A stretch of 64,000 nucleotides of DNA from a phage. The stretch lies in sequence record PZ476263.1; one strand, written 5' to 3'. A program made the translations under genes and the position numbers. Under the pieces are notes generated by a model that saw only the letters and a program-made list of their open reading frames with translations, did no database searches and was not told the DNA's origin. Below are positions 36,853-51,502 of the stretch, in pieces. The stretch's first letter is position 1. Every line of letters begins with the position of its first letter.

Positions 36853-37755
36853 TTAGTGACAATCTCCCCAGCTGTATCCACACAAGTATTCCCCTGTGAT
36901 ATGCACTGGTGATTTCATCATCTTAGCTGCTTGTTCGACACAACGAACAACCATCTCTCCTACAGGGCAGTATGTAATAGTGAAGATACCATTTTCATCT
37001 GGATCACACTTAAACTTACCTTCCTTGACACAATGGCCTTCGAGGACCATCTTCTTAGCAAGACATGCCTCAACAAAAGCTTTTGCATCAGCTTCGTTAT
37101 CAAACTTCCATACCTTTTTGAACTTCTCCGGCACTTCAAGCTGGTACTCGTCATGGTAATAAATTGTACGACGTACACCTTGATCATACCAACCTTTTTT
37201 AACCAGCTGCCAATGCAACAGGATACCTACCAAGTCAAACATGGCAGCACCACCGTTCTGTTGGAAAGCGTTAAGCAATGAGTGTTTGGATCGGGTATAG
37301 ATCTTACGACCATCAAGACCATAAATGAATCGTTTACCGTTGGCTTCCCAAAACTTCTCAAGTGCTTCTTTACGACCTTTCAAACCTAAGTTGCTATCCC
37401 AAAATGCATCGATTACTGCTTGTGCTTTCTCCAATGAAATTCCAAGCATGGATGCAATCTTAGCTGCTTGAGCACCGTACATAATTCCATAGGTGATCCC
37501 CTTTCCTTCCCCACGAGATACTTTCTTACCCGCTGCCTTGGTATATGCTTCTGCGTTTCGACTATGAGCATCACCACTTTCCATAATTCGGAGGTAAGCA
37601 CCACCATCGAATTCATAACTTCCCCATGCAGCGACCATACCCTCTAAGTTAGAACCGTCTATACCTACCTGATACTTACCCTCGGGTACAGTGAAAAGGT
37701 CACGCATTTCTTTACCTAGAAGAACCTTAGGATCAGGCTTCGGCACGTTAGCACA
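36853..37755 (-). CDS. DNA polymerase (family A), 3' exon
   Basis: Contains motif A-like 'VGIDGSNLEGM', motif B-like 'ITYGIMYGAQAAKIA' and motif C 'YHDEYQLEV'. Frame stays open upstream of the GTG ('..ANVPKP', cf. PNLxNIP). Confidence 0.75.
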   Translation of the reverse strand, partial: CANVPKPDPKVLLGKEMRDLFTVPEGKYQVGIDGSNLEGMVAAWGSYEFDGGAYLRIMESGDAHSRNAEAYTKAAGKKVSRGEGKGITYGIMYGAQAAKIASMLGISLEKAQAVIDAFWDSNLGLKGRKEALEKFWEANGKRFIYGLDGRKIYTRSKHSLLNAFQQNGGAAMFDLVGILLHWQLVKKGWYDQGVRRTIYYHDEYQLEVPEKFKKVWKFDNEADAKAFVEACLAKKMVLEGHCVKEGKFKCDPDENGIFTITYCPVGEMVVRCVEQAAKMMKSPVHITGEYLCGYSWGDCH

Positions 37756-38959
37756 ATATGTTCGTTAAAGGTCGCAACTCTTTAACCGGGATCGTATACA
37801 CCTGAAGAAATATCTCTTCACACTTTCGAGTACGATTCCTGTTTCTTTTGCTACGTCACAGAAATCTTTCCCATCAAGTATCATTTTTGTTATCTCTAGT
37901 TCCAACTCTTCTTTAGTTTTGTTTCTTAACTTACTGACCCCAAAAGTTTTATCTTCGGCAAATTTACCGATAAAAAATCTAACTGTCGGTTTCTCTAAGT
38001 TTAGGATCTCACAAATCTTTAAAAGAGTCGCACCTTTCCACCATAAAGATCTTGCTTCTTCTGCAAGATGTTTCTTTTCTTCCACTTCAGAAACACATTT
38101 CCCCATGTCGAAAGTTTTTAAGTATCTTGCTGCAAAGTGCCTTTCTTGTCCAAGGTCCAGAGAGATTTTTGCATACGAATCACCTGCCAGATATCTTTTA
38201 TGGATGTGCAGATACATCTCTCCATAGTTATCAAAGCCGGATTGTTTTGCTCTATTATCTCTTTTTGCCATTGAACTTCTTTCAGATGCGATAGTTTTTA
38301 TGGACTCACCAAAAGAGTTTCCAATTGCATCTGGACTAGGACTCACCGCTGAAAAAGTATTATTAGTCATGTTATAGAATTCTGTATTGTTGGCTGCATC
38401 ATTCTCTAAAAGAACTTTTTCTTCGATTTCACGAAGGAGATCTCTTTTGTCTACAACTTCCAACACCTCAGCTACAAATCTATGACCACTTTTTAAATCC
38501 TTTTTCATATCTGGATTGGAAGAGGACCCAAGATAAGGTTTTCCACTCTTAATCGAGATTATTGTGGGGATTCCATCCACATCTATCACTTTGCATTCAC
38601 TTTTACTTCCGATATATTTGTTCGGGTATTCTTCTTTATCGATGTTTTTCAAGAGATAAACAATGTTCATGTATACGTCCTCCGCTGTATCTTTCAACAC
38701 AGTTCAGACTATATCTTTGACACACTAAAGGATAGCTGAACCAATCTACCCCTAATGTATCACAAACCACTTCGATTGTCTACGCTTACAATCTACGCCT
38801 TCCGGCTAGTCGTTGAACCTTCTACCTGTCTGGTAGCTTGGCTGCTGATTGCCCAATCCTTTAACTTTTTAAACCTTCGCTTTGTATTCCTACTCGCAGT
38901 GGTATAAAGGCTCTAAGGGGTTCCCAGCAATTCAATTTGTTTTATACTGAGGCAGCTTT
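37756..38959 (-). mobile_element. group I intron (with homing endonuclease ORF) in the DNA polymerase gene
   Basis: Minus-strand RNA carries the conserved elements in order: P-like AAUUGCUGGGAAC (38920-38931), Q-like AAUCAGCAGCC (38840-38850), R-like GUUCAACGACUAG (38806-38818), S-like AAGAUAUAGUC (38707-38717). Boundaries approximate. Confidence 0.7.
37765..38670 (-). CDS. GIY-YIG family homing endonuclease (intron-encoded)
   Basis: Starts 'MNIVYLLKNIDKEEYPNKYIGSK...' (IVY...YIGS, cf. I-TevI GIY...YVGS); SD GGAGGA; ORF lies 3' of the intron core. Confidence 0.6.
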   Translation of the reverse strand: MNIVYLLKNIDKEEYPNKYIGSKSECKVIDVDGIPTIISIKSGKPYLGSSSNPDMKKDLKSGHRFVAEVLEVVDKRDLLREIEEKVLLENDAANNTEFYNMTNNTFSAVSPSPDAIGNSFGESIKTIASERSSMAKRDNRAKQSGFDNYGEMYLHIHKRYLAGDSYAKISLDLGQERHFAARYLKTFDMGKCVSEVEEKKHLAEEARSLWWKGATLLKICEILNLEKPTVRFFIGKFAEDKTFGVSKLRNKTKEELELEITKMILDGKDFCDVAKETGIVLESVKRYFFRCIRSRLKSCDL

Positions 38960-40694
38960 AGTTTACCACAGTGTGTTTACGACGGCCTGTATTCGTTATT
39001 CCAGTATAACGTGCAGGTAATTTACCGTCCACCGCAAGTCGAGGATGGTTTAACCAACCTGTATCTACTTTATCCTCTTTCAAAGGATCAAGAACACTTC
39101 GACGGTTACGAAGAGATAGCCATTTTACAATCTGCTTTGCCATATCACCATCGACTCGCTCAAGGTTAGGACAAAGGCCCTGCTGATCCTTAAGCTGCGG
39201 TGATGTTGGTAATGCTCTTGCCTTCTTCCTGAAGAACTTATACATCTTCTCTTTATCTTGCCACTGCTTACCACTGATACCTAAACTTTTCAGAATCAGA
39301 TCGCGATATTCAGTCTGGTCAAGATCATCAATGTATTGACGAACAATGATATCGACTTCGTTATCGGGACGTTGTTTCTTAAACTGGTCCTTCGTCGCAT
39401 CTTTGGTTCGCCACAATGTTGGGACCCAACCCGCATCACGAATAAGGAATTTTTTAACGTCATCCTGATTACCAATACGCATCGGAATCATAATATCCGG
39501 CATCTTTTGATCTTTGATATCCATCAATGCACGGGCCATGTCTTCCGGTGGCAAAGGTACAAGATTTTCCTTTTTCACATTTTGAGAACGAATAAATTCA
39601 GCCATTTTGGATTCATCTTCTACACCATGCTCTACACAATACTTAATTGCAGCAGATGTGAGTGAACCATCGCCCTTAAACGGCTTACTTGGAGCGCCTT
39701 TAAATTCAAGAGCTTCCCAATTCACATTGTAACCTAACTTCTCTAACCATTTCCAGCCCGTACCAGAAAGAGATCCATCTCCTTTAAACGGCTTAGACGG
39801 GAAAGTAGGCTGTGCTGACTTGGACATCTCTTTCTTCGGCAGCTTTGGTTCAACCTCTTCTTCAATTTCTTTCATCATCGTATCAATACGATCACGCAAA
39901 GCTAAACCTTTCTCCACGTCGAAAGTAACACCCTGAATTTCTTGCTCAACCATCAAATAGTCGGTAAGCATACCTCGACGCAAGGCATTCTTCCAATTGA
40001 TGAGCTTCATCTTCTTCGGATCTTTGTCCGATTCATCTTTGTACATGAAACGTTTATCATCCGGCATAGAGTCACATGAAATTTCTTTCATGAGGGCATC
40101 CCATACCATTTCGTTGATGATTACGTCTTCAATAATACGATCACAATATTTCCACAAAGGGAGTCCACGCCAATCTTCGATTGCTACCTTCTGGTTTGCT
40201 ACTCGCATACCCCAAGCTTCAAGTCCATGAGGGCCTACAGGCTTCATTTTACCTGTAACTGGGTTCTTTACCATCTCGGGACAACCGCGCGGCAGAGGGC
40301 GATCTGGATACAGTGTACGGGACATTGAAAGGGTATCGAAGATGTTAACTTGTTTACCATTGATAGTCCCCATGCAACCAGGGTCTGCAAACATATCGTA
40401 TGTTGTTCCAAACATCTTTTTAAACAGCTGTAAGTCATAGCCGAAGATATTATGGATAGCAACAGCTTTTGGTTCAGTCACAAACCACTCATTAAGTTCT
40501 TCCAACTTACGGATCTTAAAGTTCTTACCTTTGGATTGAATAAACTTAACCGCTTGCTCGTAGCCTTCGCGGTTCGGATCGATAAAAATATTCCAATTGT
40601 CCTTTTTGTACTCTTTAAAAAGAACACAGTGAACAAGATCAACTTCTGTCAACAGGCCGTTAGCCTCTGCATCTCCAATAAACAAACCTTTCAT
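38958..40694 (-). CDS. DNA polymerase (family A), 5' exon with 3'-5' exonuclease domain
   Basis: N-terminus 'MKGLFIGDAEANGLL' matches the T7-type Exo I motif; ends '...YTGITNTGRR' (cf. TGR..PNL.NIP) before running into intron sequence. Confidence 0.75.
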   Translation of the reverse strand: MKGLFIGDAEANGLLTEVDLVHCVLFKEYKKDNWNIFIDPNREGYEQAVKFIQSKGKNFKIRKLEELNEWFVTEPKAVAIHNIFGYDLQLFKKMFGTTYDMFADPGCMGTINGKQVNIFDTLSMSRTLYPDRPLPRGCPEMVKNPVTGKMKPVGPHGLEAWGMRVANQKVAIEDWRGLPLWKYCDRIIEDVIINEMVWDALMKEISCDSMPDDKRFMYKDESDKDPKKMKLINWKNALRRGMLTDYLMVEQEIQGVTFDVEKGLALRDRIDTMMKEIEEEVEPKLPKKEMSKSAQPTFPSKPFKGDGSLSGTGWKWLEKLGYNVNWEALEFKGAPSKPFKGDGSLTSAAIKYCVEHGVEDESKMAEFIRSQNVKKENLVPLPPEDMARALMDIKDQKMPDIMIPMRIGNQDDVKKFLIRDAGWVPTLWRTKDATKDQFKKQRPDNEVDIIVRQYIDDLDQTEYRDLILKSLGISGKQWQDKEKMYKFFRKKARALPTSPQLKDQQGLCPNLERVDGDMAKQIVKWLSLRNRRSVLDPLKEDKVDTGWLNHPRLAVDGKLPARYTGITNTGRRKHTVVN

Positions 40695-41012: not shown

Positions 41013-41452
41013 CGTTCAATCTCCTTCTTTTTGGACATAGTGATGAAATAGTTCTGACCTTTCTTGCACTGGTTAAACCAGCCAACAAGATATCCATCTT
41101 CGATACGAATATCATACTCAGGGTATTCGCCCGTTCCACTGATTATATGGAAAAGTTTACCGAAGTCAATAAAGGTCAGATTATACTGAAAGTTTTCCTC
41201 GTCCTGGAAGATTGCAACAGCAGAGCTTCGGCCCTTTGACGTAGTAATAAACTTAAGTTTAAGTTCACGATGCTCATGATCGACAATGTTAACTTTTCTC
41301 TCAAGCAAGTAATTTGGGTCAACACGGGGCCAATGAGCTTTAAATCTTTCAGCGCCTTCTTCAGTAAAGGCATCACCATCGTAACCAGTAAACCATTTAC
41401 CATTATCTTTTACGTAGCCATGATAACTACGCTTACCTTTTACTTTAATCAT
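41009..41452 (-). CDS. hypothetical protein
   Basis: 147-aa ORF, ATGA overlap. Confidence 0.4.
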   Translation of the reverse strand: MIKVKGKRSYHGYVKDNGKWFTGYDGDAFTEEGAERFKAHWPRVDPNYLLERKVNIVDHEHRELKLKFITTSKGRSSAVAIFQDEENFQYNLTFIDFGKLFHIISGTGEYPEYDIRIEDGYLVGWFNQCKKGQNYFITMSKKKEIER

Positions 41453-41652
41453 TCCGTTATCTCCTCTTGTTCTGGATCTTCGATCATTGAGCTTTTAACT
41501 CTTGACCCGTATGTGGTCATTTCACCCGACCTACTCGAACCCTCAGGTGCTCTTATGACAGCATGACCTCTTAATAGTGTTCCTTCGTAGGTTTGTCCAA
41601 CTACAAAACCCATTTGGGAAACACCATTATCTCTATAACAAAGTAAATTCAT
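41449..41652 (-). CDS. tandem small-protein family, member 11 (divergent)
   Basis: 'VVGQTYEG' ... 'IEDPEQEEITE'. Start uncertain. Confidence 0.35.
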   Translation of the reverse strand: MNLLCYRDNGVSQMGFVVGQTYEGTLLRGHAVIRAPEGSSRSGEMTTYGSRVKSSMIEDPEQEEITE

Positions 41653-41863
41653 CGTTCTCTATTTTAATTTCCTCTGTGATTTTATTTTCGGGATCAAGAA
41701 TAAGGCATGACTTTTTACACGGCACGGAATAAAACAACCCCCGCTCGTTTGGACAGATAATTAAAATATTTCGACCTCCCATATCTTTACCCTCGTAAGA
41801 CTCTCCTACCATTACCCCTTTGTCCCTCAGGAAACTATCCTCTTTTATGTAGATATACCTCAT
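41633..41863 (-). CDS. tandem small-protein family, member 10
   Basis: 'MRYIYIKED...VGESYEG...CLILDPENK'; pairs with member 4. Confidence 0.45.
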   Translation of the reverse strand: MRYIYIKEDSFLRDKGVMVGESYEGKDMGGRNILIICPNERGLFYSVPCKKSCLILDPENKITEEIKIENDEFTLL

Positions 41864-42060
41864 AGGCTGTTTTCCTCAGGGTCAAGAATAAAATGTTTAT
41901 CTTCGCAAAATCCCCAGTTATTTTCTCGTCCTAATGGATAGATACAGAGAATATTTTTCTTTATACTTGCATATTTCCCTTCATAAGTACAGCCTATTTC
42001 TACATGTTTCCAAGTAGGAACACTTAAGCATATGTATTTTTTAAATGTTTCTTCATTCAT
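41860..42060 (-). CDS. tandem small-protein family, member 9
   Basis: 'KKYICLS...GCTYEG...LCIYP...FILDPEENSL'. Confidence 0.45.
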   Translation of the reverse strand: MNEETFKKYICLSVPTWKHVEIGCTYEGKYASIKKNILCIYPLGRENNWGFCEDKHFILDPEENSL

Positions 42061-42256
42061 TTTGGTCCTCCCCCTCAGGGTCAATAACGAAGTGTATAGA
42101 ATTTAAATATCTTATCCCACCATCCAACCCTGTCGGGTAGATACAAAGATAGTGAAGCATTACGCTATCTTCACATCCATAATAAGTCGATCCTAAAGAA
42201 ACTTGACTGCTTGCTTTATCTGATAAGCAGATGTACTTTTTTAAATCCTGTTTCAT
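42053..42256 (-). CDS. tandem small-protein family, member 8
   Basis: 'KKYICLS...GSTYYG...LCIYP...FVIDPEGEDQNE'. Confidence 0.45.
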   Translation of the reverse strand: MKQDLKKYICLSDKASSQVSLGSTYYGCEDSVMLHYLCIYPTGLDGGIRYLNSIHFVIDPEGEDQNE

Positions 42257-42459
42257 TCATTAACCTCCTCAGGGTCGAGAATGAAATCATTAAAATCGCA
42301 AATTATCCAATCAGCAGACCAAGGGTGATGACCATCAGGGAAAATATATAGAACACCAGGTATCATTCCCCCTATAAAACCTGTATATGTCTCGCCTATT
42401 TTGACAAGATCCTCGTTACTTTTTATACAGAGGAACTTTTTAGTGTTTTTATCTCTCAT
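42253..42459 (-). CDS. tandem small-protein family, member 7
   Basis: 'KKFLCIKS...GETYTG...LYIFP...FILDPEEVNE'. Confidence 0.45.
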   Translation of the reverse strand: MRDKNTKKFLCIKSNEDLVKIGETYTGFIGGMIPGVLYIFPDGHHPWSADWIICDFNDFILDPEEVNE

Positions 42460-42662
42460 TTTTTAATATCCTCTGGTTCCTTTGCAAAACTCTTAGTGCC
42501 TATATATACCCATCCACTACCTATTCCATGAGGATATATACAAAGTGCATCCGACATTGTACTGTCGAATCCTGAATAAGTCTCCCCCAAATTAAGATTT
42601 GAGCATCCTTTGGTGCTTATGCATATGTAATTTTGAATATACATTTCAGGTTTTTGTTTCAT
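42456..42662 (-). CDS. tandem small-protein family, member 6
   Basis: Start at the ATG with SD GAGGAG: 'MKQKPEMYIQNYICIS...GETYSG...LCIYP...AKEPEDIKK'. Confidence 0.45.
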   Translation of the reverse strand: MKQKPEMYIQNYICISTKGCSNLNLGETYSGFDSTMSDALCIYPHGIGSGWVYIGTKSFAKEPEDIKK

Positions 42663-42666
42663 TTTA

Positions 42667-42864
42667 TTACTCCTCGTGCTCGGGGTCAAGAACGAAGTCC
42701 GCAGAATGATAGTACACACCATAAGTTTCTATCCCTTTCGGAAAAATATGAAGATAGTTGCTCATTAAAATATCTTTACGACCATAATAGGTCAATCCTT
42801 GAGAGATTGCTGTACCTGCCTCATCAGATATGCAAAGATACTTTTTAAATCCTATTTCACTCAT
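42667..42864 (-). CDS. tandem small-protein family, member 5
   Basis: 'KKYLCIS...GLTYYG...LHIFP...FVLDPEHEE'. Confidence 0.45.
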   Translation of the reverse strand: MSEIGFKKYLCISDEAGTAISQGLTYYGRKDILMSNYLHIFPKGIETYGVYYHSADFVLDPEHEE

Positions 42865-43053
42865 TTAATCTCCTTCCGGATCAGCCGCTAAGCAAGATCC
42901 CTTACAAGGTGCTGACCTGAGCCAACCCTCATCGTTTAAATAGTAAATGATAATAACAGCATCTCCTATACCCTCAGTGCCTTCGTAAGATTCTCCTATT
43001 ATCAACGGGTAGTCTTCCAAAAGGCGATCTTCTTTTATGTAGATATATTTCAT
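42865..43053 (-). CDS. tandem small-protein family, member 4
   Basis: 'MKYIYIKED...IGESYEG...CLAADPEGD'. Confidence 0.45.
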   Translation of the reverse strand: MKYIYIKEDRLLEDYPLIIGESYEGTEGIGDAVIIIYYLNDEGWLRSAPCKGSCLAADPEGD

Positions 43054-43245
43054 TTATTCATCGCCTTCGGGATCTTCGACAAAATTATCTAACTTTACAG
43101 GCATAGATAAATTATCAGTCACCTTCACTGTGATGTAAATACTTTGAAAAGATTTAAATTTATTCTCTTCCCGATAAGTCTCGCCAACTACCAAGAGTTT
43201 AGAGTCCTTATTTTGTATGCATAGATAATTTGTCATTGTTTTCAC
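43054..43245 (-). CDS. tandem small-protein family, member 3
   Basis: 'NYLCIQN...VGETY...FVEDPEGDE'. Confidence 0.45.
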   Translation of the reverse strand: MKTMTNYLCIQNKDSKLLVVGETYREENKFKSFQSIYITVKVTDNLSMPVKLDNFVEDPEGDE

Positions 43246-43445
43246 CTGTATTCAGGGTCTTCCGTGAAACTCTCCTTATTGAAAAATAGAGTAGTATCTT
43301 CATTTGGGAACGTTATAGGTATGTACTTACCCCGAGGAATACTATCGTTTATAAAGTAAGTCATACCTAATTGAAGTTTAGTGCTGTGTATGTTACTTAT
43401 ACATATAACCCCGACAAATCTTTCACCCTTCCTCTCCTTCTTCAT
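43242..43445 (-). CDS. tandem small-protein family, member 2
   Basis: 'VGVICIS...LGMTYF...FTEDPEYR'. Confidence 0.4.
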   Translation of the reverse strand: MKKERKGERFVGVICISNIHSTKLQLGMTYFINDSIPRGKYIPITFPNEDTTLFFNKESFTEDPEYR

Positions 43446-43632
43446 ATATTTCAGGATCCTCTACAAAATCAGATTTCTTAAGCCATAGTTCCAAAGTATC
43501 ACTTACCCTTACGGATATCTGCCCACCAAATATTTTAGATGGTCTTACATAGTAAGTTTCTCCGATTACAAGTTTGTAAGTAGACCTATTGCTAACGCAG
43601 AGAAACTTAACATATTTTTGCTGTATACTCAT
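43423..43632 (-). CDS. tandem small-protein family, member 1
   Basis: 'VKFLCVS...IGETYY...FVEDPEIYEEGEEG'. Confidence 0.45.
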   Translation of the reverse strand: MSIQQKYVKFLCVSNRSTYKLVIGETYYVRPSKIFGGQISVRVSDTLELWLKKSDFVEDPEIYEEGEEG

Positions 43633-43963: not shown

Positions 43964-44644
43964 TTAGTGATTGAATTTAAAAACTGCCCGTGCAAAACCT
44001 TCTGGTGTTAGTGATCGCAATTGTTTTGTCCGATCAGACTTTCCACCTAAATACCGCCATCCCCAAAAACATCCAATATGTTCAACAGGTTTCTTTTCAG
44101 GCATTATAAACCCATTTCCTGACCAAAGGCAAGTCTTTTTAGTGTAGGCATTCTGTAAAGGCATCTGAGGATGATAAGAACCTTCGTGTGGTTCCAGATA
44201 ACCCCCATACTCATACGGATCAAAGTAATGGTCAGGTTTTCGCCATAGGGTACTCATCTTTCCTACAGGATTCTCCACAAACCAAGGACAATTAAATGTA
44301 TTCGCAATCCGCTCTACCATTTTTGCATTGATGATTGACTCCATCAACTGATCATTAGTCCTCTCATGTTTTGCACCCGCTACCGTTAAGTTTGTGCAAG
44401 AAGGGAAAGAGAAGATGATATCTGGCTTTGGGATACCCGCTTTGGCTGCAAAGGCTTCAAAATTATCATCAATCCAACAATTCACATACTCAATATTTGG
44501 ATGCTCTTTACGCATCTTGTACTGACCGTGATCCGCCGTATCGGCATTGAAGCAATAAACTTTCCAACCTGCCTTTGCATACTCATAGCCCATAAAGCCA
44601 CTACCGTCAAAAAGCGACCAAACCACTTTAAAAATATTAATCAT
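43964..44644 (-). CDS. methyltransferase-like protein with C5-cytosine-MTase-type motifs
   Basis: 'SLFDGSGFMG' (motif I-like F.G.G), 'FPSCTNLTVAG' (Pro-Cys motif IV-like), 'FVENPVG' (ENV-like motif VI). Only 226 aa, no obvious target-recognition domain. Confidence 0.35.
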   Translation of the reverse strand: MINIFKVVWSLFDGSGFMGYEYAKAGWKVYCFNADTADHGQYKMRKEHPNIEYVNCWIDDNFEAFAAKAGIPKPDIIFSFPSCTNLTVAGAKHERTNDQLMESIINAKMVERIANTFNCPWFVENPVGKMSTLWRKPDHYFDPYEYGGYLEPHEGSYHPQMPLQNAYTKKTCLWSGNGFIMPEKKPVEHIGCFWGWRYLGGKSDRTKQLRSLTPEGFARAVFKFNH

Positions 44645-44645
44645 A

Positions 44646-44975
44646 TTATCCTCGGATTGAAAGTTTCGCCAAATAAAATATAACCAGGTACAAGCCGTAT
44701 GCTAACGCAACCGAACTCAGTATTGTAATTGTGACAGGCAAGGCCCATAAAAGAACGATAATCATCATCGTTAAACCGAATGCTCCACCAAAACACTCTA
44801 AAAAAGCTTCACTTCCGAACTTAATGGGGTCCAAAGATTTCTTTATCTTGTCCCTTAGGAAAAGAAAAGACATAATAACAAATATTGCGATCCCCAGCAA
44901 GACCCATTGGGTAACAGAGGTGTTTTGTCGGATAAAATGATACCATGCATCATAAATTACTGTCAAGTTTTCCAT
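44646..44975 (-). CDS. membrane protein
   Basis: 109 aa, three hydrophobic helices. Confidence 0.4.
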   Translation of the reverse strand: MENLTVIYDAWYHFIRQNTSVTQWVLLGIAIFVIMSFLFLRDKIKKSLDPIKFGSEAFLECFGGAFGLTMMIIVLLWALPVTITILSSVALAYGLYLVIFYLAKLSIRG

Positions 44976-45301
44976 TAGGTCCTCACTGATAGTTTAACAA
45001 GGATTTCAATAATTTTTACAAGTACAAAGATTAAGACTGCAAAAATAGACACAAAAATAATCAAAGGTAAAAGGTATATTGTCCCTGTGATCAATGCTGA
45101 AATAAGTAAGGAAAAGAAAATCTCCGGTACACCATCCCAACACCACAGTTGCTTACTCTTTTTGTATTGATACCTTAAAATACCAAATAAAGATACAATT
45201 GAAAAAGATATGAAAATGATAAATGGTGTTTCCTTCGAGATCAAGAAACTTATTACATCATTAAACCAAAATATTACGACTCTCTGTGCGAATTCAATCA
45301 T
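44975..45301 (-). CDS. membrane protein
   Basis: Start at the ATG overlapping the upstream stop; three hydrophobic helices. Confidence 0.35.
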   Translation of the reverse strand: MIEFAQRVVIFWFNDVISFLISKETPFIIFISFSIVSLFGILRYQYKKSKQLWCWDGVPEIFFSLLISALITGTIYLLPLIIFVSIFAVLIFVLVKIIEILVKLSVRT

Positions 45302-45507
45302 TTCTTTTTCCTCTCTTTCTTCTCTGGTTTTACATCGCAAATTTTGGCTTCATATGCAATTGGTGTTACATAGCGCCAAGTCTTTTTGTAATGGTCGAGG
45401 AGTTCTCTCATATTCTCCTCGTCCTTTGCCCAACCACAAACGTGAGGTATTTCATCAACAGACATTTGACACTTAATATACCAACGCGTTTCTGTGTTTT
45501 TATTCAT
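45298..45507 (-). CDS. hypothetical small protein
   Basis: Start at the ATG overlapping the upstream stop; basic C-terminus. Confidence 0.3.
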   Translation of the reverse strand: MNKNTETRWYIKCQMSVDEIPHVCGWAKDEENMRELLDHYKKTWRYVTPIAYEAKICDVKPEKKERKKK

Positions 45508-45740
45508 GATTTTTTCACCAGTTCGTAAATCTCGAAGTCGGATTTCTTTACACACGCTCGCCAACCTGAAGATAAGCAACGAGCAACAACAAAGTCGTCT
45601 GGTAAAGAGGGTGTATTGTTTTCAACCATCAACACATCGCCTTTGAAAACATTAATTTCTATGCTTGTATTATCCCAACATACGTAAGAATAATTATCAT
45701 TTTTGGCAACTAAGAACATTTTAATATTTTTAATTGTCAT
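45504..45740 (-). CDS. hypothetical protein
   Basis: 78-aa ORF. Confidence 0.35.
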   Translation of the reverse strand: MTIKNIKMFLVAKNDNYSYVCWDNTSIEINVFKGDVLMVENNTPSLPDDFVVARCLSSGWRACVKKSDFEIYELVKKS

Positions 45741-46601: not shown

Positions 46602-46630
46602 AGTATAAGGATATTTTAGGTGGCTGTCAA
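46602..46630 (-). promoter_or_regulatory. sigma70-like promoter
   Basis: TTGACA-N17-TATACT on minus strand. Confidence 0.45.
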
Positions 46631-46635
46631 TAGAA

Positions 46636-46662
46636 AAACCACCCCGAAGGGTGGTTTATTTT
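46636..46662 (-). terminator. rho-independent terminator after primase-helicase gene
   Basis: AAACCACCCC-GAA-GGGGTGGTTT with T-runs. Confidence 0.5.
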
Positions 46663-46670
46663 GAAAAATA

Positions 46671-48713
46671 TCAGAAAGGTGCTTCCTCGTCGAAATCCAC
46701 ATCTTCAACTTCCGGTACGTCTGGAATGTTTGCTGCCGCTTCGACAATATCTTGTTGCTCCCAAATCTCTTCCATAGGTTGTCCAAGTTCTTCCATTACT
46801 TCCTTCATCTCTTGCTTCTGAGCTTCAAGGAAGTTTTCATCCGGATCTGGAATGTCCTCTTCTGTGATATCCGAACGGGTAAGGTCCGAATTACTTTCCG
46901 ACAGAGGCTGGATTTCAGCTGCCTTTGGCTTAAAGTCTGGAGAACGATGATCATCTTCTGGATGTGCTGCATACCATTCCCGAAGAGTCTCATATGGACT
47001 GTCCAAAAAGCCTTCTGGCGGCTCAAGGTAATCACCCGTGTCAATGTCATAGAACACAGGGAATTTACCAGCACGACCGTGTTTACGGTCATCCAGAATA
47101 ACAAACCATGAAGTATTTCGTTGCTTCATAGGTAGTTCTGGATCTTTGTTACGCTCAATACCCCACATGTAATACGTGTTACGCATCATTGCACGACTAC
47201 CAGCAAACTGAGCTGATTGAACTTGACCACCAAACTCGTGTGGCTTACCTGCATCTGGCTTATTGAGGTGGCAGAAGCAATAATAAGTAAAACCAAGTTC
47301 TTTAGCCAGCTTGGAGATCTCATCAGAGAACCGCTCAAGTTCCTGGTTAGCCTCTGACGCACTCATACCCTGAACAAGTCGAGTGATCGGGTCAATAAAG
47401 ATATCTTCACACCCTTCTACGATTACAGCATGGCGGATAGCACCTTTCAGTTCATCCCATACTGCACGACCATAGTTGTTATAGTAAATTACACTATCAC
47501 CAACTTCATCTGTCGCCTTGATCAGCTCTTCCTGCTTAAAGTATCCACGTTGACCTTCAAAAACTTCATTGCCCCAAATGTCACGGTAAGTCCCGTCAGG
47601 TTGCGGAAGCATTACTTTTTCTGCGTTAACGAAGTCTTTATGATATCGCTTACCTGCAATCTTCTTACAGGTGATTTCGTTCTCTTCTTCAAACTTAAAT
47701 ACCGCTGCTTTTGCTTTCTCTACGCCAGTGATATGTTCAACCAGCTGGTTAAGCAATTCACTCTTACCCATTTTTACACCCGCACCAATGAAGTAACCTT
47801 CACCGAGGCGACGGCCCAAAGTAAGTTTTGTCAGTGTAGGCCAAGGGAATTTTTTACCCAGCTTAGGGATTTCATGAGCCTTTTCACGGAATTGTGAATA
47901 AGTTGAAAAACCGTCCGGTACATATTCCTTTGGTTTCATTGCTGCCCAAAACAACTGATCAGCAAGACCTTTGTTATACATGTCACAAGGGTCCATATCT
48001 TCAGGGATATCGACCACCTTCATTTGAGGAATAACAGAGTAAACTGCGGCAACCGCATCTTTACCCTTCATAATTCCTTTTGCTTTTTCTGCTTCAGTTG
48101 CCCGATCCGCATCGAAAGCTACAATAATCTCATCAAACTTACTTAACAGCTTATAGTTGTTCTTTTGTGACAAGTTCTGAACAGCGTTAGAAGTTCCGTT
48201 AGAGATGGAAACAACTGTGAAGTTCGGTTTACGTGTCGCACCATCTTTGGGTTTATACTTTTCACGAAGAACTTGCCAAAGAACGGCAGCATCGTATTCA
48301 CCCTCAGTGATAAAGATCATTCGTTTGGAGGATTTATTAGCACCTTCAAGACCAAACAGATCACAAGCTACCGATTGAAAACCGATAGTTGTAAAATGAC
48401 CTTTCTGCTGTTTTGGGATTGTAAGATCACGCTTCTTAAAACCTACAATCTTCCCATCCAAAGTATACGGAAAGTAATGTGCTTCTGCCGAAAGACCGTC
48501 TTTTGCGGAAAGCTTAGTACGAATACCAAAACGCTCTGCTGTCTTTTCATCGATACCACGCTCAGGGATTGCTTTGAACGGATAAGTCATTACATCTGCA
48601 ACTGTTTCTTCTACTCGCGAAGAACTGCTACCAAAACTACGTTGAACACTGGCCTTTGGATTCTTATGCCCAAATTTGTAACCGCCAAACAAACTTTCTC
48701 CGATGGTACTCAT
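46671..48713 (-). CDS. primase-helicase (TOPRIM plus DnaB/gp4-like helicase)
   Basis: TOPRIM-like 'IFITEGEYDAAV', helicase Walker A 'GAGVKMGKSE', acidic C-terminus '...DVDFDEEAPF'. No N-terminal Cys4 zinc ribbon seen. Confidence 0.7.
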   Translation of the reverse strand: MSTIGESLFGGYKFGHKNPKASVQRSFGSSSSRVEETVADVMTYPFKAIPERGIDEKTAERFGIRTKLSAKDGLSAEAHYFPYTLDGKIVGFKKRDLTIPKQQKGHFTTIGFQSVACDLFGLEGANKSSKRMIFITEGEYDAAVLWQVLREKYKPKDGATRKPNFTVVSISNGTSNAVQNLSQKNNYKLLSKFDEIIVAFDADRATEAEKAKGIMKGKDAVAAVYSVIPQMKVVDIPEDMDPCDMYNKGLADQLFWAAMKPKEYVPDGFSTYSQFREKAHEIPKLGKKFPWPTLTKLTLGRRLGEGYFIGAGVKMGKSELLNQLVEHITGVEKAKAAVFKFEEENEITCKKIAGKRYHKDFVNAEKVMLPQPDGTYRDIWGNEVFEGQRGYFKQEELIKATDEVGDSVIYYNNYGRAVWDELKGAIRHAVIVEGCEDIFIDPITRLVQGMSASEANQELERFSDEISKLAKELGFTYYCFCHLNKPDAGKPHEFGGQVQSAQFAGSRAMMRNTYYMWGIERNKDPELPMKQRNTSWFVILDDRKHGRAGKFPVFYDIDTGDYLEPPEGFLDSPYETLREWYAAHPEDDHRSPDFKPKAAEIQPLSESNSDLTRSDITEEDIPDPDENFLEAQKQEMKEVMEELGQPMEEIWEQQDIVEAAANIPDVPEVEDVDFDEEAPF

Positions 48714-50149: not shown

Positions 50150-51502
50150 TTATTGAAAAATTGTCGGGAACTTTTCCTTATAGAAAGCCACAACATCTTG
50201 ATCAACGATAACATCCTTTACTCGCAAACGCTTAAGTAAGCGAAGACCGCTAGTATCTGTCGCACGAGAAAGCATAACGTAAGCCTGACCAGGTGAGAAT
50301 GTCCCATATCCTAGATCAATGTTAACTTTACCAAGTGTAAGACCCTGTGCTTTGTGTCCGGTGATCGCATATCCCAACTTAAATGGATACTGAATATATT
50401 CACCAATTGACTTATCAACCAAAACTGTTTTCTCTACCATCTTCTTAATGGTCTTCTTAGTCCCATCCGGCATATCAATCTCTACGTCTTCGAGAACATT
50501 TTTCTTTTCAGGGACTTGTGTAATATTGTTCCAAGTGAACGGTGCAATCGGGACCATTTTACCATCGATCTCTACAACAACGAAAGTTTTAGCGATACGT
50601 CGAATAATTCCAACAGTACCATTCACATAATCAGGGGTCTTTTTCTTCTGATCATTGTCATTAACGACAATCATAACCTTAAGACCTTCTTTGAGCATTA
50701 ATTTTTCATTAACAGGACGCTCAGTAAATTCACCTGTGATACGTGCATTGAATTCATGAGGTTCTGCCTTAATTTTAGAAAATTCTTTATTGTTAATCTC
50801 TTCCGCGAGCTTGTTTGTTGTTGTAAGAGTTACAGCACCCTCTAAAGAAGGCCCATAGCATTTACTGTTAAAGTAATTCACCGCATCAGGAATGTTTTTA
50901 CCGATACGAATATTATTGAGATGTTCAGCAAATTCTGGATCTGTTTGGCGATGAACCTTAGGCAAGTAAGCATAAGTCATATCCAAGGATTCCCAAGCCT
51001 CACAACCAAAAGGGATTTCTTTACCGTGAAGTTCACGGAATGTTGGAACTTCTTCTTTTTTAAGGACAGGCTTGATCTGGAAGCCATCACCAAACATGAT
51101 TACCTGCAAGCCACCGAAAGGCTCATTAACTTTACGATGATAACGCAGCTTCATATCGATCTCTTTAAGCTTGTCACTACGTGTCATGCCGATCTCATCG
51201 AATACGATTGCATCCAATGCTTCAGATGCCATAAGCATAGCGGGTTTCTTTGATTTAGCTTTATAATCTTCGCTTGTGGTTACTCCAAAGGTGAGTCCAA
51301 AAGCTTTATGAGTCGTCACACCACGGATATTCAATGAAGCTACGCCAGTTGGTGCGACAAAAAGAAAACTGTCAGCAAAGAATTCACGCAGAGAAGCGAT
51401 CATCATACTTTTACCACTACCACCAGGGCCTGTAACGAAAACATTCTTCCCTGCCATAATCTCTGCCATAGCCGCTTCTGTACCGATAACATAATTACTC
51501 AT
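50150..51502 (-). CDS. Dda/Pif1/RecD-like superfamily 1 DNA helicase
   Basis: Walker A 'VTGPGGSGKS', 'FVAPTGVAS', Walker B 'IVFDEIGM'. Confidence 0.65.
   Translation of the reverse strand: MSNYVIGTEAAMAEIMAGKNVFVTGPGGSGKSMMIASLREFFADSFLFVAPTGVASLNIRGVTTHKAFGLTFGVTTSEDYKAKSKKPAMLMASEALDAIVFDEIGMTRSDKLKEIDMKLRYHRKVNEPFGGLQVIMFGDGFQIKPVLKKEEVPTFRELHGKEIPFGCEAWESLDMTYAYLPKVHRQTDPEFAEHLNNIRIGKNIPDAVNYFNSKCYGPSLEGAVTLTTTNKLAEEINNKEFSKIKAEPHEFNARITGEFTERPVNEKLMLKEGLKVMIVVNDNDQKKKTPDYVNGTVGIIRRIAKTFVVVEIDGKMVPIAPFTWNNITQVPEKKNVLEDVEIDMPDGTKKTIKKMVEKTVLVDKSIGEYIQYPFKLGYAITGHKAQGLTLGKVNIDLGYGTFSPGQAYVMLSRATDTSGLRLLKRLRVKDVIVDQDVVAFYKEKFPTIFQ

Follow-up and report, generated by a model that had tools for sequence, protein, structure and literature searches.

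Compact Dcm-like C5-cytosine methyltransferases of phages have been studied experimentally in the setting of retron defence, and we describe here a further gene of this kind, which encodes a protein of 226 amino acids (aa) and lies at positions 43964-44644, on the minus strand, of a 64,000-nucleotide stretch of phage DNA (record PZ476263.1; this whole stretch is called the window below). A preprint on retron Ec86 used phage K42, a KarlJaspers (Bas06) strain with 95.4% genome identity (bioRxiv 10.1101/2023.08.16.553469). In all four retron escaper phages (4/4), a 711-bp gene for a 'Dcm-like C5 cytosine methyltransferase', or the sequence immediately upstream of it, carried lesions, and expression of K42 Dcm alone from a plasmid led to toxicity only in the presence of retron Ec86 (bioRxiv 10.1101/2023.08.16.553469). 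Mass spectrometry coupled to liquid chromatography (LC-MS) revealed a high level of 5-methylcytosine (5mC) on the multicopy single-stranded DNA (msDNA) of Ec86 with the wild-type enzyme, and no such 5mC with the C82A/E128A/K175A/K176A mutant or with the empty vector; moreover, mutation of either C of the msDNA CCTGG sequence abolished defence (bioRxiv 10.1101/2023.08.16.553469). Residues K175 and K176 of K42 Dcm were assigned a substrate-binding role by superposition on DNMT3A (bioRxiv 10.1101/2023.08.16.553469). MG1655, the host of these experiments, carries its own dcm gene, and in this dcm+ background the msDNA contained little 5mC and the retron was silent until the phage enzyme was expressed (bioRxiv 10.1101/2023.08.16.553469). 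A 2025 PLoS Biology retron paper was also considered as evidence and was set aside, its trigger being the N6-adenine methyltransferase of Bas51, which belongs to a different family.

A second described relative is gp52 of Pantoea phage AAS23, which is 51% identical to the window protein. HHpred related gp52 to a Shigella C5-cytosine methyltransferase with a probability of 99.7%, and digests with a panel that included EcoRII were interpreted by the authors as a sign that the phage DNA carries Dam and Dcm methylation (PMC8004638). The comparison with K42 rests on KarlJaspers (MZ501090, accession from the BASEL supplement), through the genome identity given above, the identical gene length (711 bp) and the residue numbers: bas06_0055 of KarlJaspers encodes a 236-aa 'Dcm-like C5 cytosine methyltransferase' that has C82, E128, K175 and K176 at exactly the K42 Dcm numbering. 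This protein aligns with the window protein over the full length at 47% identity (E=2e-67), and the four K42 residues fall on C83, E124, K169 and K170 of the window protein.

We consider it very likely that the gene product is a DNA cytosine-C5 methyltransferase that works alone, uses S-adenosylmethionine (SAM) and belongs to PHROG 757, the compact 'Dcm-like' family of phages. The initial annotation of this locus had proposed a compact methyltransferase-like product of 226 aa, and the list of open reading frames (ORFs) with its translation confirms an ORF of that size at exactly 43964-44644 on the minus strand, the plus-strand frame of the same interval being riddled with stop codons. The gene and the elements of its product that are discussed below are the following:

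43964-44644, minus strand: coding sequence of the compact Dcm-like DNA C5-cytosine methyltransferase, 226 aa, stop codon included (matches to PHROG 757, CR9_073 and KarlJaspers bas06_0055)
44597-44611, minus strand: motif I, F12-D13-G14-S15-G16 (FxGxG, the predicted SAM-binding loop after strand beta-1, in the string SLFDGSGFMG; conservation, alignments and model)
44396-44404, minus strand: motif IV, P81-S82-C83, with Cys83 as predicted catalytic nucleophile (string FPSCT; conservation and alignments)
44267-44275, minus strand: motif VI, E124-N125-P126, ENV-like, with the Glu predicted to protonate cytosine N3 (string FVENPVG; conservation and alignments)
44135-44140, minus strand: K169-K170 on strand 171-176 (Y167-T-K-K-T-C-L-W174), a putative substrate-contacting element (conservation and K175/K176 of K42 Dcm)
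44003-44017, minus strand: R210-S-L-T-P214, which opens the terminal helix (…TKQLRSLTPEGFARAVF), a putative motif X counterpart closing the SAM pocket (conservation and model)

The family assignment is carried by PHROG 757 ('DNA methyltransferase'), matched at E=3.4e-82 over residues 6-225 of 226. This group also takes in CR9_073, the KarlJaspers-like MikeNSara Dcm (E=2e-84), AAS23 gp52 and GeorgBuechner gp36. A tblastn search of 50,697 phage records detected homologues in 1,504, of which 1,440 had a near-full-length match; the carriers are mostly phages of Escherichia, Klebsiella, Salmonella and Shigella from several unrelated groups (Vequintavirinae-type myoviruses, Phapecoctavirus, Drexlerviridae, Webervirus and Dhillonvirus). 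The closest match came from Cronobacter phage CR9, whose CR9_073 product of 223 aa is 85% identical to the window protein and was predicted as a 'putative site-specific DNA methylase'. When 1.84 billion cluster representatives were searched exhaustively with a profile, 1,802 clusters matched at E<=0.001, of which 743 reached E<=1e-10. Most family representatives that are near full length measure 200-260 aa, the shorter entries being fragments; thus, compactness characterises the family as a whole and does not result from truncation. Depositors have named these proteins 'Dcm-like C5 cytosine methyltransferase', 'DNA cytosine methyltransferase' or 'hypothetical protein'. Judged by these matches, the window protein is a new addition to a phage family that is already known, widely annotated and in part characterised.

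Conservation was followed in two alignments, one of 32 homologues at 57-85% identity and one of 63 diverse members at 30-56% identity. In the first, D13, G14, S15, G16, P81, C83, E124, N125 and P126 are invariant (32/32); in the second, C83, E124 and P126 are still invariant (63/63). With this invariance at both depths, the motif pattern is not a product of chance. The motif strings listed in the initial annotation are all present, in the order I, IV and VI, but two of them had been described loosely, the 'Pro-Cys' motif being in fact P-x-C and the 'ENV' motif being ENP. Beyond motif VI, the conserved elements are W134-R-K-P137 and the strand Y167-T-K-K-T-C-L-W174, in which Y167 and W174 are invariant and K169 and T171 nearly invariant among the 63 members. 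The segment 177-203 is short and varies between clades, and it is followed by an almost invariant C-terminal block, T206-K-Q-L-R-S-L-T-P214…A-R-A-V-F, in which R210 is invariant and S211, P214, G216 and A220 nearly invariant in the same 63 members. The window protein has no QxRxR motif VIII of the E. coli Dcm type; the conserved Y167-T-K-K-T171 strand stands in its place, and its lysine pair (K169-K170) is probably the counterpart of motif VIII. Likewise, the RSLTP helix is probably the counterpart of motif X; we take it to resemble the DNMT3 motif X 'GRSWSVP'.

Structure prediction, which had been suggested as a check on the presence of a SAM-binding fold, found one. AlphaFold2, run with an alignment of 32 sequences, gave a one-domain model with alternating beta strands and alpha helices in a Rossmann-type topology (mean pLDDT 83.1, pTM 0.85), in which motif I follows strand E7-11 and helices H204-211 and H215-225 lie at the C-terminus. 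In structure comparison the model scored 12.8 with DNMT3B (187 residues aligned), 11.8 with the prophage C5-cytosine methyltransferase 3g7u and 11.4 with DNMT3A, followed by the C5-carboxymethyltransferase 8yf3 (11.2) and M.HhaI (10.4). The top 41 Foldseek matches in the PDB were all catalytic domains of DNMT3A, DNMT3B or DNMT3C (E of about 4e-7 to 4e-5, probability 1.00). The model is thus a class I SAM-methyltransferase fold closest to solved C5-cytosine methyltransferases, and the fold as modelled is that of this enzyme class, nearest to the members with the smallest recognition region.

The comparison with described enzymes mainly concerns size and DNA recognition. Bacterial C5-cytosine methyltransferases carry a target-recognition domain (TRD) of 80-200 residues. 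Between the Y-T-K-K-T strand and the conserved C-terminal block of the window protein, where such a domain would sit, there are at most about 25-30 residues. The initial annotation was therefore right to describe a protein of C5-cytosine methyltransferase type without the usual large TRD, as the PHROG 757 match, the DNMT3-like model and this short interval all indicate. Its estimate of a length about 100-150 aa below the typical one also agrees with M.HhaI and M.HaeIII (327-328 residues), which exceed the window protein by about 100 aa. E. coli Dcm (472 aa), which is extended at its N-terminus and carries a large TRD between motifs VIII and IX, is 246 aa longer. E. coli Dcm and the M.EcoRII-type enzymes share with the window protein the order of motifs I, IV and VI and the Rossmann-type fold of C5-cytosine methyltransferases, and the reaction product is presumed to be the same. 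DNMT3A, DNMT3B and DNMT3C are closest in fold, with a very small recognition loop comparable to the short loops of the window protein, but their sequence identity to it is only 11-17%, their constructs of 272-291 aa are longer by about 50-65 residues, and they are eukaryotic, CpG-specific enzymes that work as DNMT3L-assisted tetramers. KarlJaspers/K42 Dcm has in common with the window protein PHROG 757, the compact architecture and an Asn at motif II. It comes from a Drexlerviridae siphovirus, whereas the window phage is an rV5/CR9-like myovirus; its motif IV is PPC instead of PSC; and relative to KarlJaspers the window protein has a 5-residue deletion after motif IV and differs over residues 151-166 and 183-199.

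On the strength of the 47%-identical homologue, the window protein is likely to be an active DNA C5-cytosine methyltransferase. Its mechanism can be proposed from the family and from canonical chemistry of these enzymes. SAM would be held by the FDGSG loop and the C-terminal RSLTP helix, and the target cytosine would be flipped out of the DNA. Cys83 would then attack C6 while Glu124, as general acid, protonates N3; the methyl group would be transferred to C5, and beta-elimination would free the enzyme. Since no large recognition domain lies between motifs VIII and IX, recognition of DNA would have to come from short loops, presumably the conserved loops rich in aromatic and basic residues at about 134-170 and 177-203. 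The gene is probably expressed together with other small early or middle genes beside the replication module, and its product would methylate the phage DNA and, incidentally, host DNA. The main benefit would most likely be protection from EcoRII-type, CCWGG-directed restriction, and the cost might be exposure of the phage to defences that sense methylation, with retron Ec86 (Retron-Eco1) as an example. In the BASEL study, carriage of such genes was not linked in any simple way to resistance to restriction, and Vequintavirinae-type phages were very restriction-sensitive (PMC8594841).

Several observations weigh against the assignment, or against its extension to CCWGG. Scans of the window protein with Pfam and NCBIfam gave no match even at E<=10, and this silence of the curated models is why the protein looks odd at first reading. 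The profile check proposed with the initial annotation had named DNA_methylase (PF00145); it failed with that model, whose gathering threshold the window protein does not reach, and succeeded with PHROG 757. Sub-threshold PF00145 matches occur in only 5 of 63 relatives (best E=0.0067), although one relative, P0091, carries a precomputed match to PF00145. Motif IV has one residue between Pro and Cys and is not a PC dipeptide; the KarlJaspers and MikeNSara homologues have FPPC at this position. The acidic residue of motif II, D in most of the wider family, is N33 in the window protein, and the KarlJaspers enzyme, which is active, likewise has N there. Among sequence comparisons with solved enzymes, a phmmer search of PDB sequences with the window protein alone yielded nothing but a spurious match to a topoisomerase, and the family profile against the same sequences gave a weak match to M.HaeIII over motifs I-IV (E=0.054; residues 4-87 aligned to 2-79, with FDGSG on FSGAGG and FP(S)C on GPPC) and nothing further at E<=10. 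An hhalign comparison of the family alignment with E. coli Dcm placed FxGxG on LFAGIGG, matched the Cys of PC and placed ENP on 'LENV', but against this single sequence it was not significant (probability 0.4%) and serves as a motif map only, not as evidence of homology. As to the site, CCWGG was deduced as the K42 Dcm target from mutation of the msDNA CCTGG in dcm+ MG1655. Finally, CCWGG is about 2-fold depleted in the window (52 sites; shuffled sequences predict 87 and a Markov model 107), and such depletion would be needless if those sites were fully protected.

CCWGG is presumed to be the recognition site of the window protein, a presumption that might about equally well turn out right or wrong. 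The site statistics of the window are compatible with partial shielding or with decay by 5mC deamination and are not diagnostic of the enzyme's target. CCSGG occurs once where 28 sites are expected; CTGCAG, GGTACC, GGGCCC and ACCGGT do not occur in the window at all; TCCGGA (4 sites, 35 expected) and AGGCCT (2 sites, 28 expected) are rare, and GGCC is not depleted. The window thus displays a strong general avoidance of palindromic restriction sites, and its k-mer statistics single out no other motif as a target.

Four other explanations have to be weighed against an active, stand-alone enzyme acting on CCWGG, and the most serious of them leaves the activity in place and changes only its target. 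It is possible, though we would hold it to be doubtful, that the enzyme acts on a target or substrate unlike the inner C of CCWGG methylated by host Dcm, such as the outer C, a shorter and commoner motif, or hairpin or single-stranded DNA. The recognition region is minimal, and the closest fold, that of DNMT3, reads only a dinucleotide. The likely DNA-contact loops (151-166/183-199) read 'EHIGCFWGWRY' in the window protein and 'KEEDKDNPGWAKT' in the KarlJaspers clade. Moreover, Ec86 msDNA was methylated, and the retron activated, by the phage enzyme and not by dcm+ MG1655 itself, and the authors of the retron study describe the phage Dcm as toxic on its own (bioRxiv 10.1101/2023.08.16.553469). 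A different preference would account for the contrast seen in MG1655, where msDNA methylation and retron activation came from the phage enzyme and not from host Dcm; but this contrast may also reflect expression level alone, so that either dosage matters or preference differs. Loss of defence on mutating either C of the msDNA CCTGG, the interpretation of the AAS23 digests as Dam and Dcm methylation, and the fact that no other motif stands out in the k-mer statistics of the window all speak for CCWGG. For the family as a whole, we would only tentatively suggest that these TRD-less 'Dcm-like' enzymes may recognise a site other than C(5mC)WGG, perhaps a shorter one, or may favour DNA in hairpin or single-stranded form. 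If this were true, 5mC in carriers, the window phage among them, could be denser than assumed or follow another pattern, and the variable loops at about 151-166 and 183-199 would set clade-specific specificities.

The remaining explanations touch the activity itself. The very short length, the lack of a recognisable TRD and an operon shared with genes for several small proteins of unknown function might suggest one half of a split methyltransferase, like M.AquI among the split C5-cytosine methyltransferases, or an enzyme to which a phage or host partner supplies target recognition; the initial annotation had raised such a minimal enzyme acting with a partner. We regard this as highly improbable. 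The motif IX/X-like RSLTP…ARAVF block is on the same polypeptide, so the catalytic domain appears complete; the neighbouring genes are unrelated across six contexts (the window, CR9, MikeNSara, KarlJaspers, GeorgBuechner and AAS23), none being conserved; and K42 Dcm alone was sufficient in E. coli for 5mC formation and retron activation. An enzyme for another pyrimidine modification had also been suggested, and one could think of transfer of a non-methyl group (e.g., carboxymethyl from carboxy-SAM, Cx-SAM) or of modification of another pyrimidine or of RNA (DNMT2-like, or a 5-methyluridine enzyme). The structural matches, 8yf3 among them, all belong to one C5-cytosine methyltransferase superfamily, in which the DNMT3 enzymes score higher; the product made on DNA by the KarlJaspers/K42 homologue, which has the same Asn, is 5mC by LC-MS; and no CmoA-like Cx-SAM synthase gene was noticed nearby, the whole window not having been searched for one. 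Such an activity is accordingly most improbable. That the protein is a relic without catalysis, or binds DNA but has ceased to methylate it, would fit the failure of the curated Pfam and NCBIfam models and the exceptional sensitivity to restriction-modification systems reported for Vequintavirinae and their relatives (PMC8594841), but the catalytic positions are all intact and strongly conserved across hundreds of clusters, and a good ribosome-binding site precedes the full-length ORF, which makes this quite unlikely. A stand-alone DNA C5-cytosine methyltransferase of the compact Dcm-like family therefore remains our preferred explanation.

The layout of the locus adds two features upstream of the methyltransferase gene:

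44649-44653, minus strand: Shine-Dalgarno-like GAGGA, 4 nt 5' of the ATG (read from the sequence)
46602-46657, minus strand: terminator-like hairpin (46657-46636), then promoter-like TTGACA-17-TATACT (46630-46602; consensus scan only)

The ATG of the methyltransferase gene is at 44644-44642, and the TAA of the upstream ORF (44648-44646) ends one base before it, the GAGGA lying within the 3' end of that ORF. Such an arrangement is suggestive of an operon in which the genes are translationally coupled. Between 46568 and 41449, every ORF runs on the minus strand, and the ORFs are tightly packed or overlapping. The two ORFs directly upstream, 44646-44975 (109 aa) and 44975-45340 (121 aa), are also on the minus strand and appear to be translationally coupled to the methyltransferase gene. 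In both, transmembrane-like segments of strong hydrophobicity occur (Kyte-Doolittle maxima over 19 residues, 2.4 and 3.2), and neither gave a Pfam match; the 121-aa ORF matches phrog_15955, a group of unknown function. Downstream of the methyltransferase gene, a 106-aa ORF is followed by small paralogues arranged in tandem. The context given in the initial annotation, between membrane proteins and a paralogue array, is in keeping with this arrangement.

The hairpin consists of AAACCACCC-TTCG-GGGTGGTTT and a T run; it is strong and resembles an intrinsic terminator, and the promoter-like site lies at most 6 nt beyond it (<=6 nt). This TTGACA-17-TATACT site is the best promoter-like site of the scan and is near-consensus for the sigma-70 type. 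Placed just downstream of the primase/helicase gene, the pair is likely to mark a transcription-unit boundary, and it is probably the start of a minus-strand unit of small genes that includes the methyltransferase gene, with boundaries taken from the sequence. The methyltransferase gene stands between the primase/helicase gene (46671-48713) and the DNA polymerase genes, as in CR9. CR9_073 and other Certrevirus and Vequintavirinae-type orthologues occupy the same slot between these genes, amid small ORFs, although the small ORFs adjoining CR9_073 differ in number and size from those of the window (sizes and counts compared).

Other parts of the window deserve mention in their own right. The paralogue array, which is more unusual than the methyltransferase, comprises eleven tandem small ORFs of 62-88 aa at 41449-43632 on the minus strand (possibly also 45504-45740), tightly packed or overlapping. 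Its members, only about 20-30% identical to one another, have in common K-Y-[IL]-C-[IL]-S at the N-terminus, G-x-T-Y-x-G in the middle, and D-P-E with an acidic tail behind it at the C-terminus; the two members tested had no PHROG match. The DNA polymerase appears to be split over 36853-40694 on the minus strand: ORF 38958-40694 (578 aa) corresponds to positions 670-980 of phrog_17, and ORF 36853-37746 (297 aa) to positions 986-1233 of phrog_17 and to all of phrog_8888. Between them, a 311-aa ORF (37765-38700) has weak GIY-YIG SegE-like and helix-turn-helix matches (E=0.0025, sub-threshold) and probably encodes a homing endonuclease inserted in the polymerase gene. The helicase ORF at 50150-51502 (minus strand, 450 aa) covers only positions 1-384 of the 823 positions of phrog_30356, and an interruption or truncation is possible in this gene too; HNH homing endonucleases are present in the helicase region of related phages. 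The G+C content of the window is 40.7%, and no tRNA genes were found in it.

To conclude, the presence of a Dcm-like methyltransferase gene predicts 5-methylcytosine in the DNA of the window phage. This phage may resist EcoRII-type enzymes, and it may also be recognised by methylation-sensing defences such as retron Ec86, which is of relevance for the host range of rV5-like phages and for their use in phage therapy.

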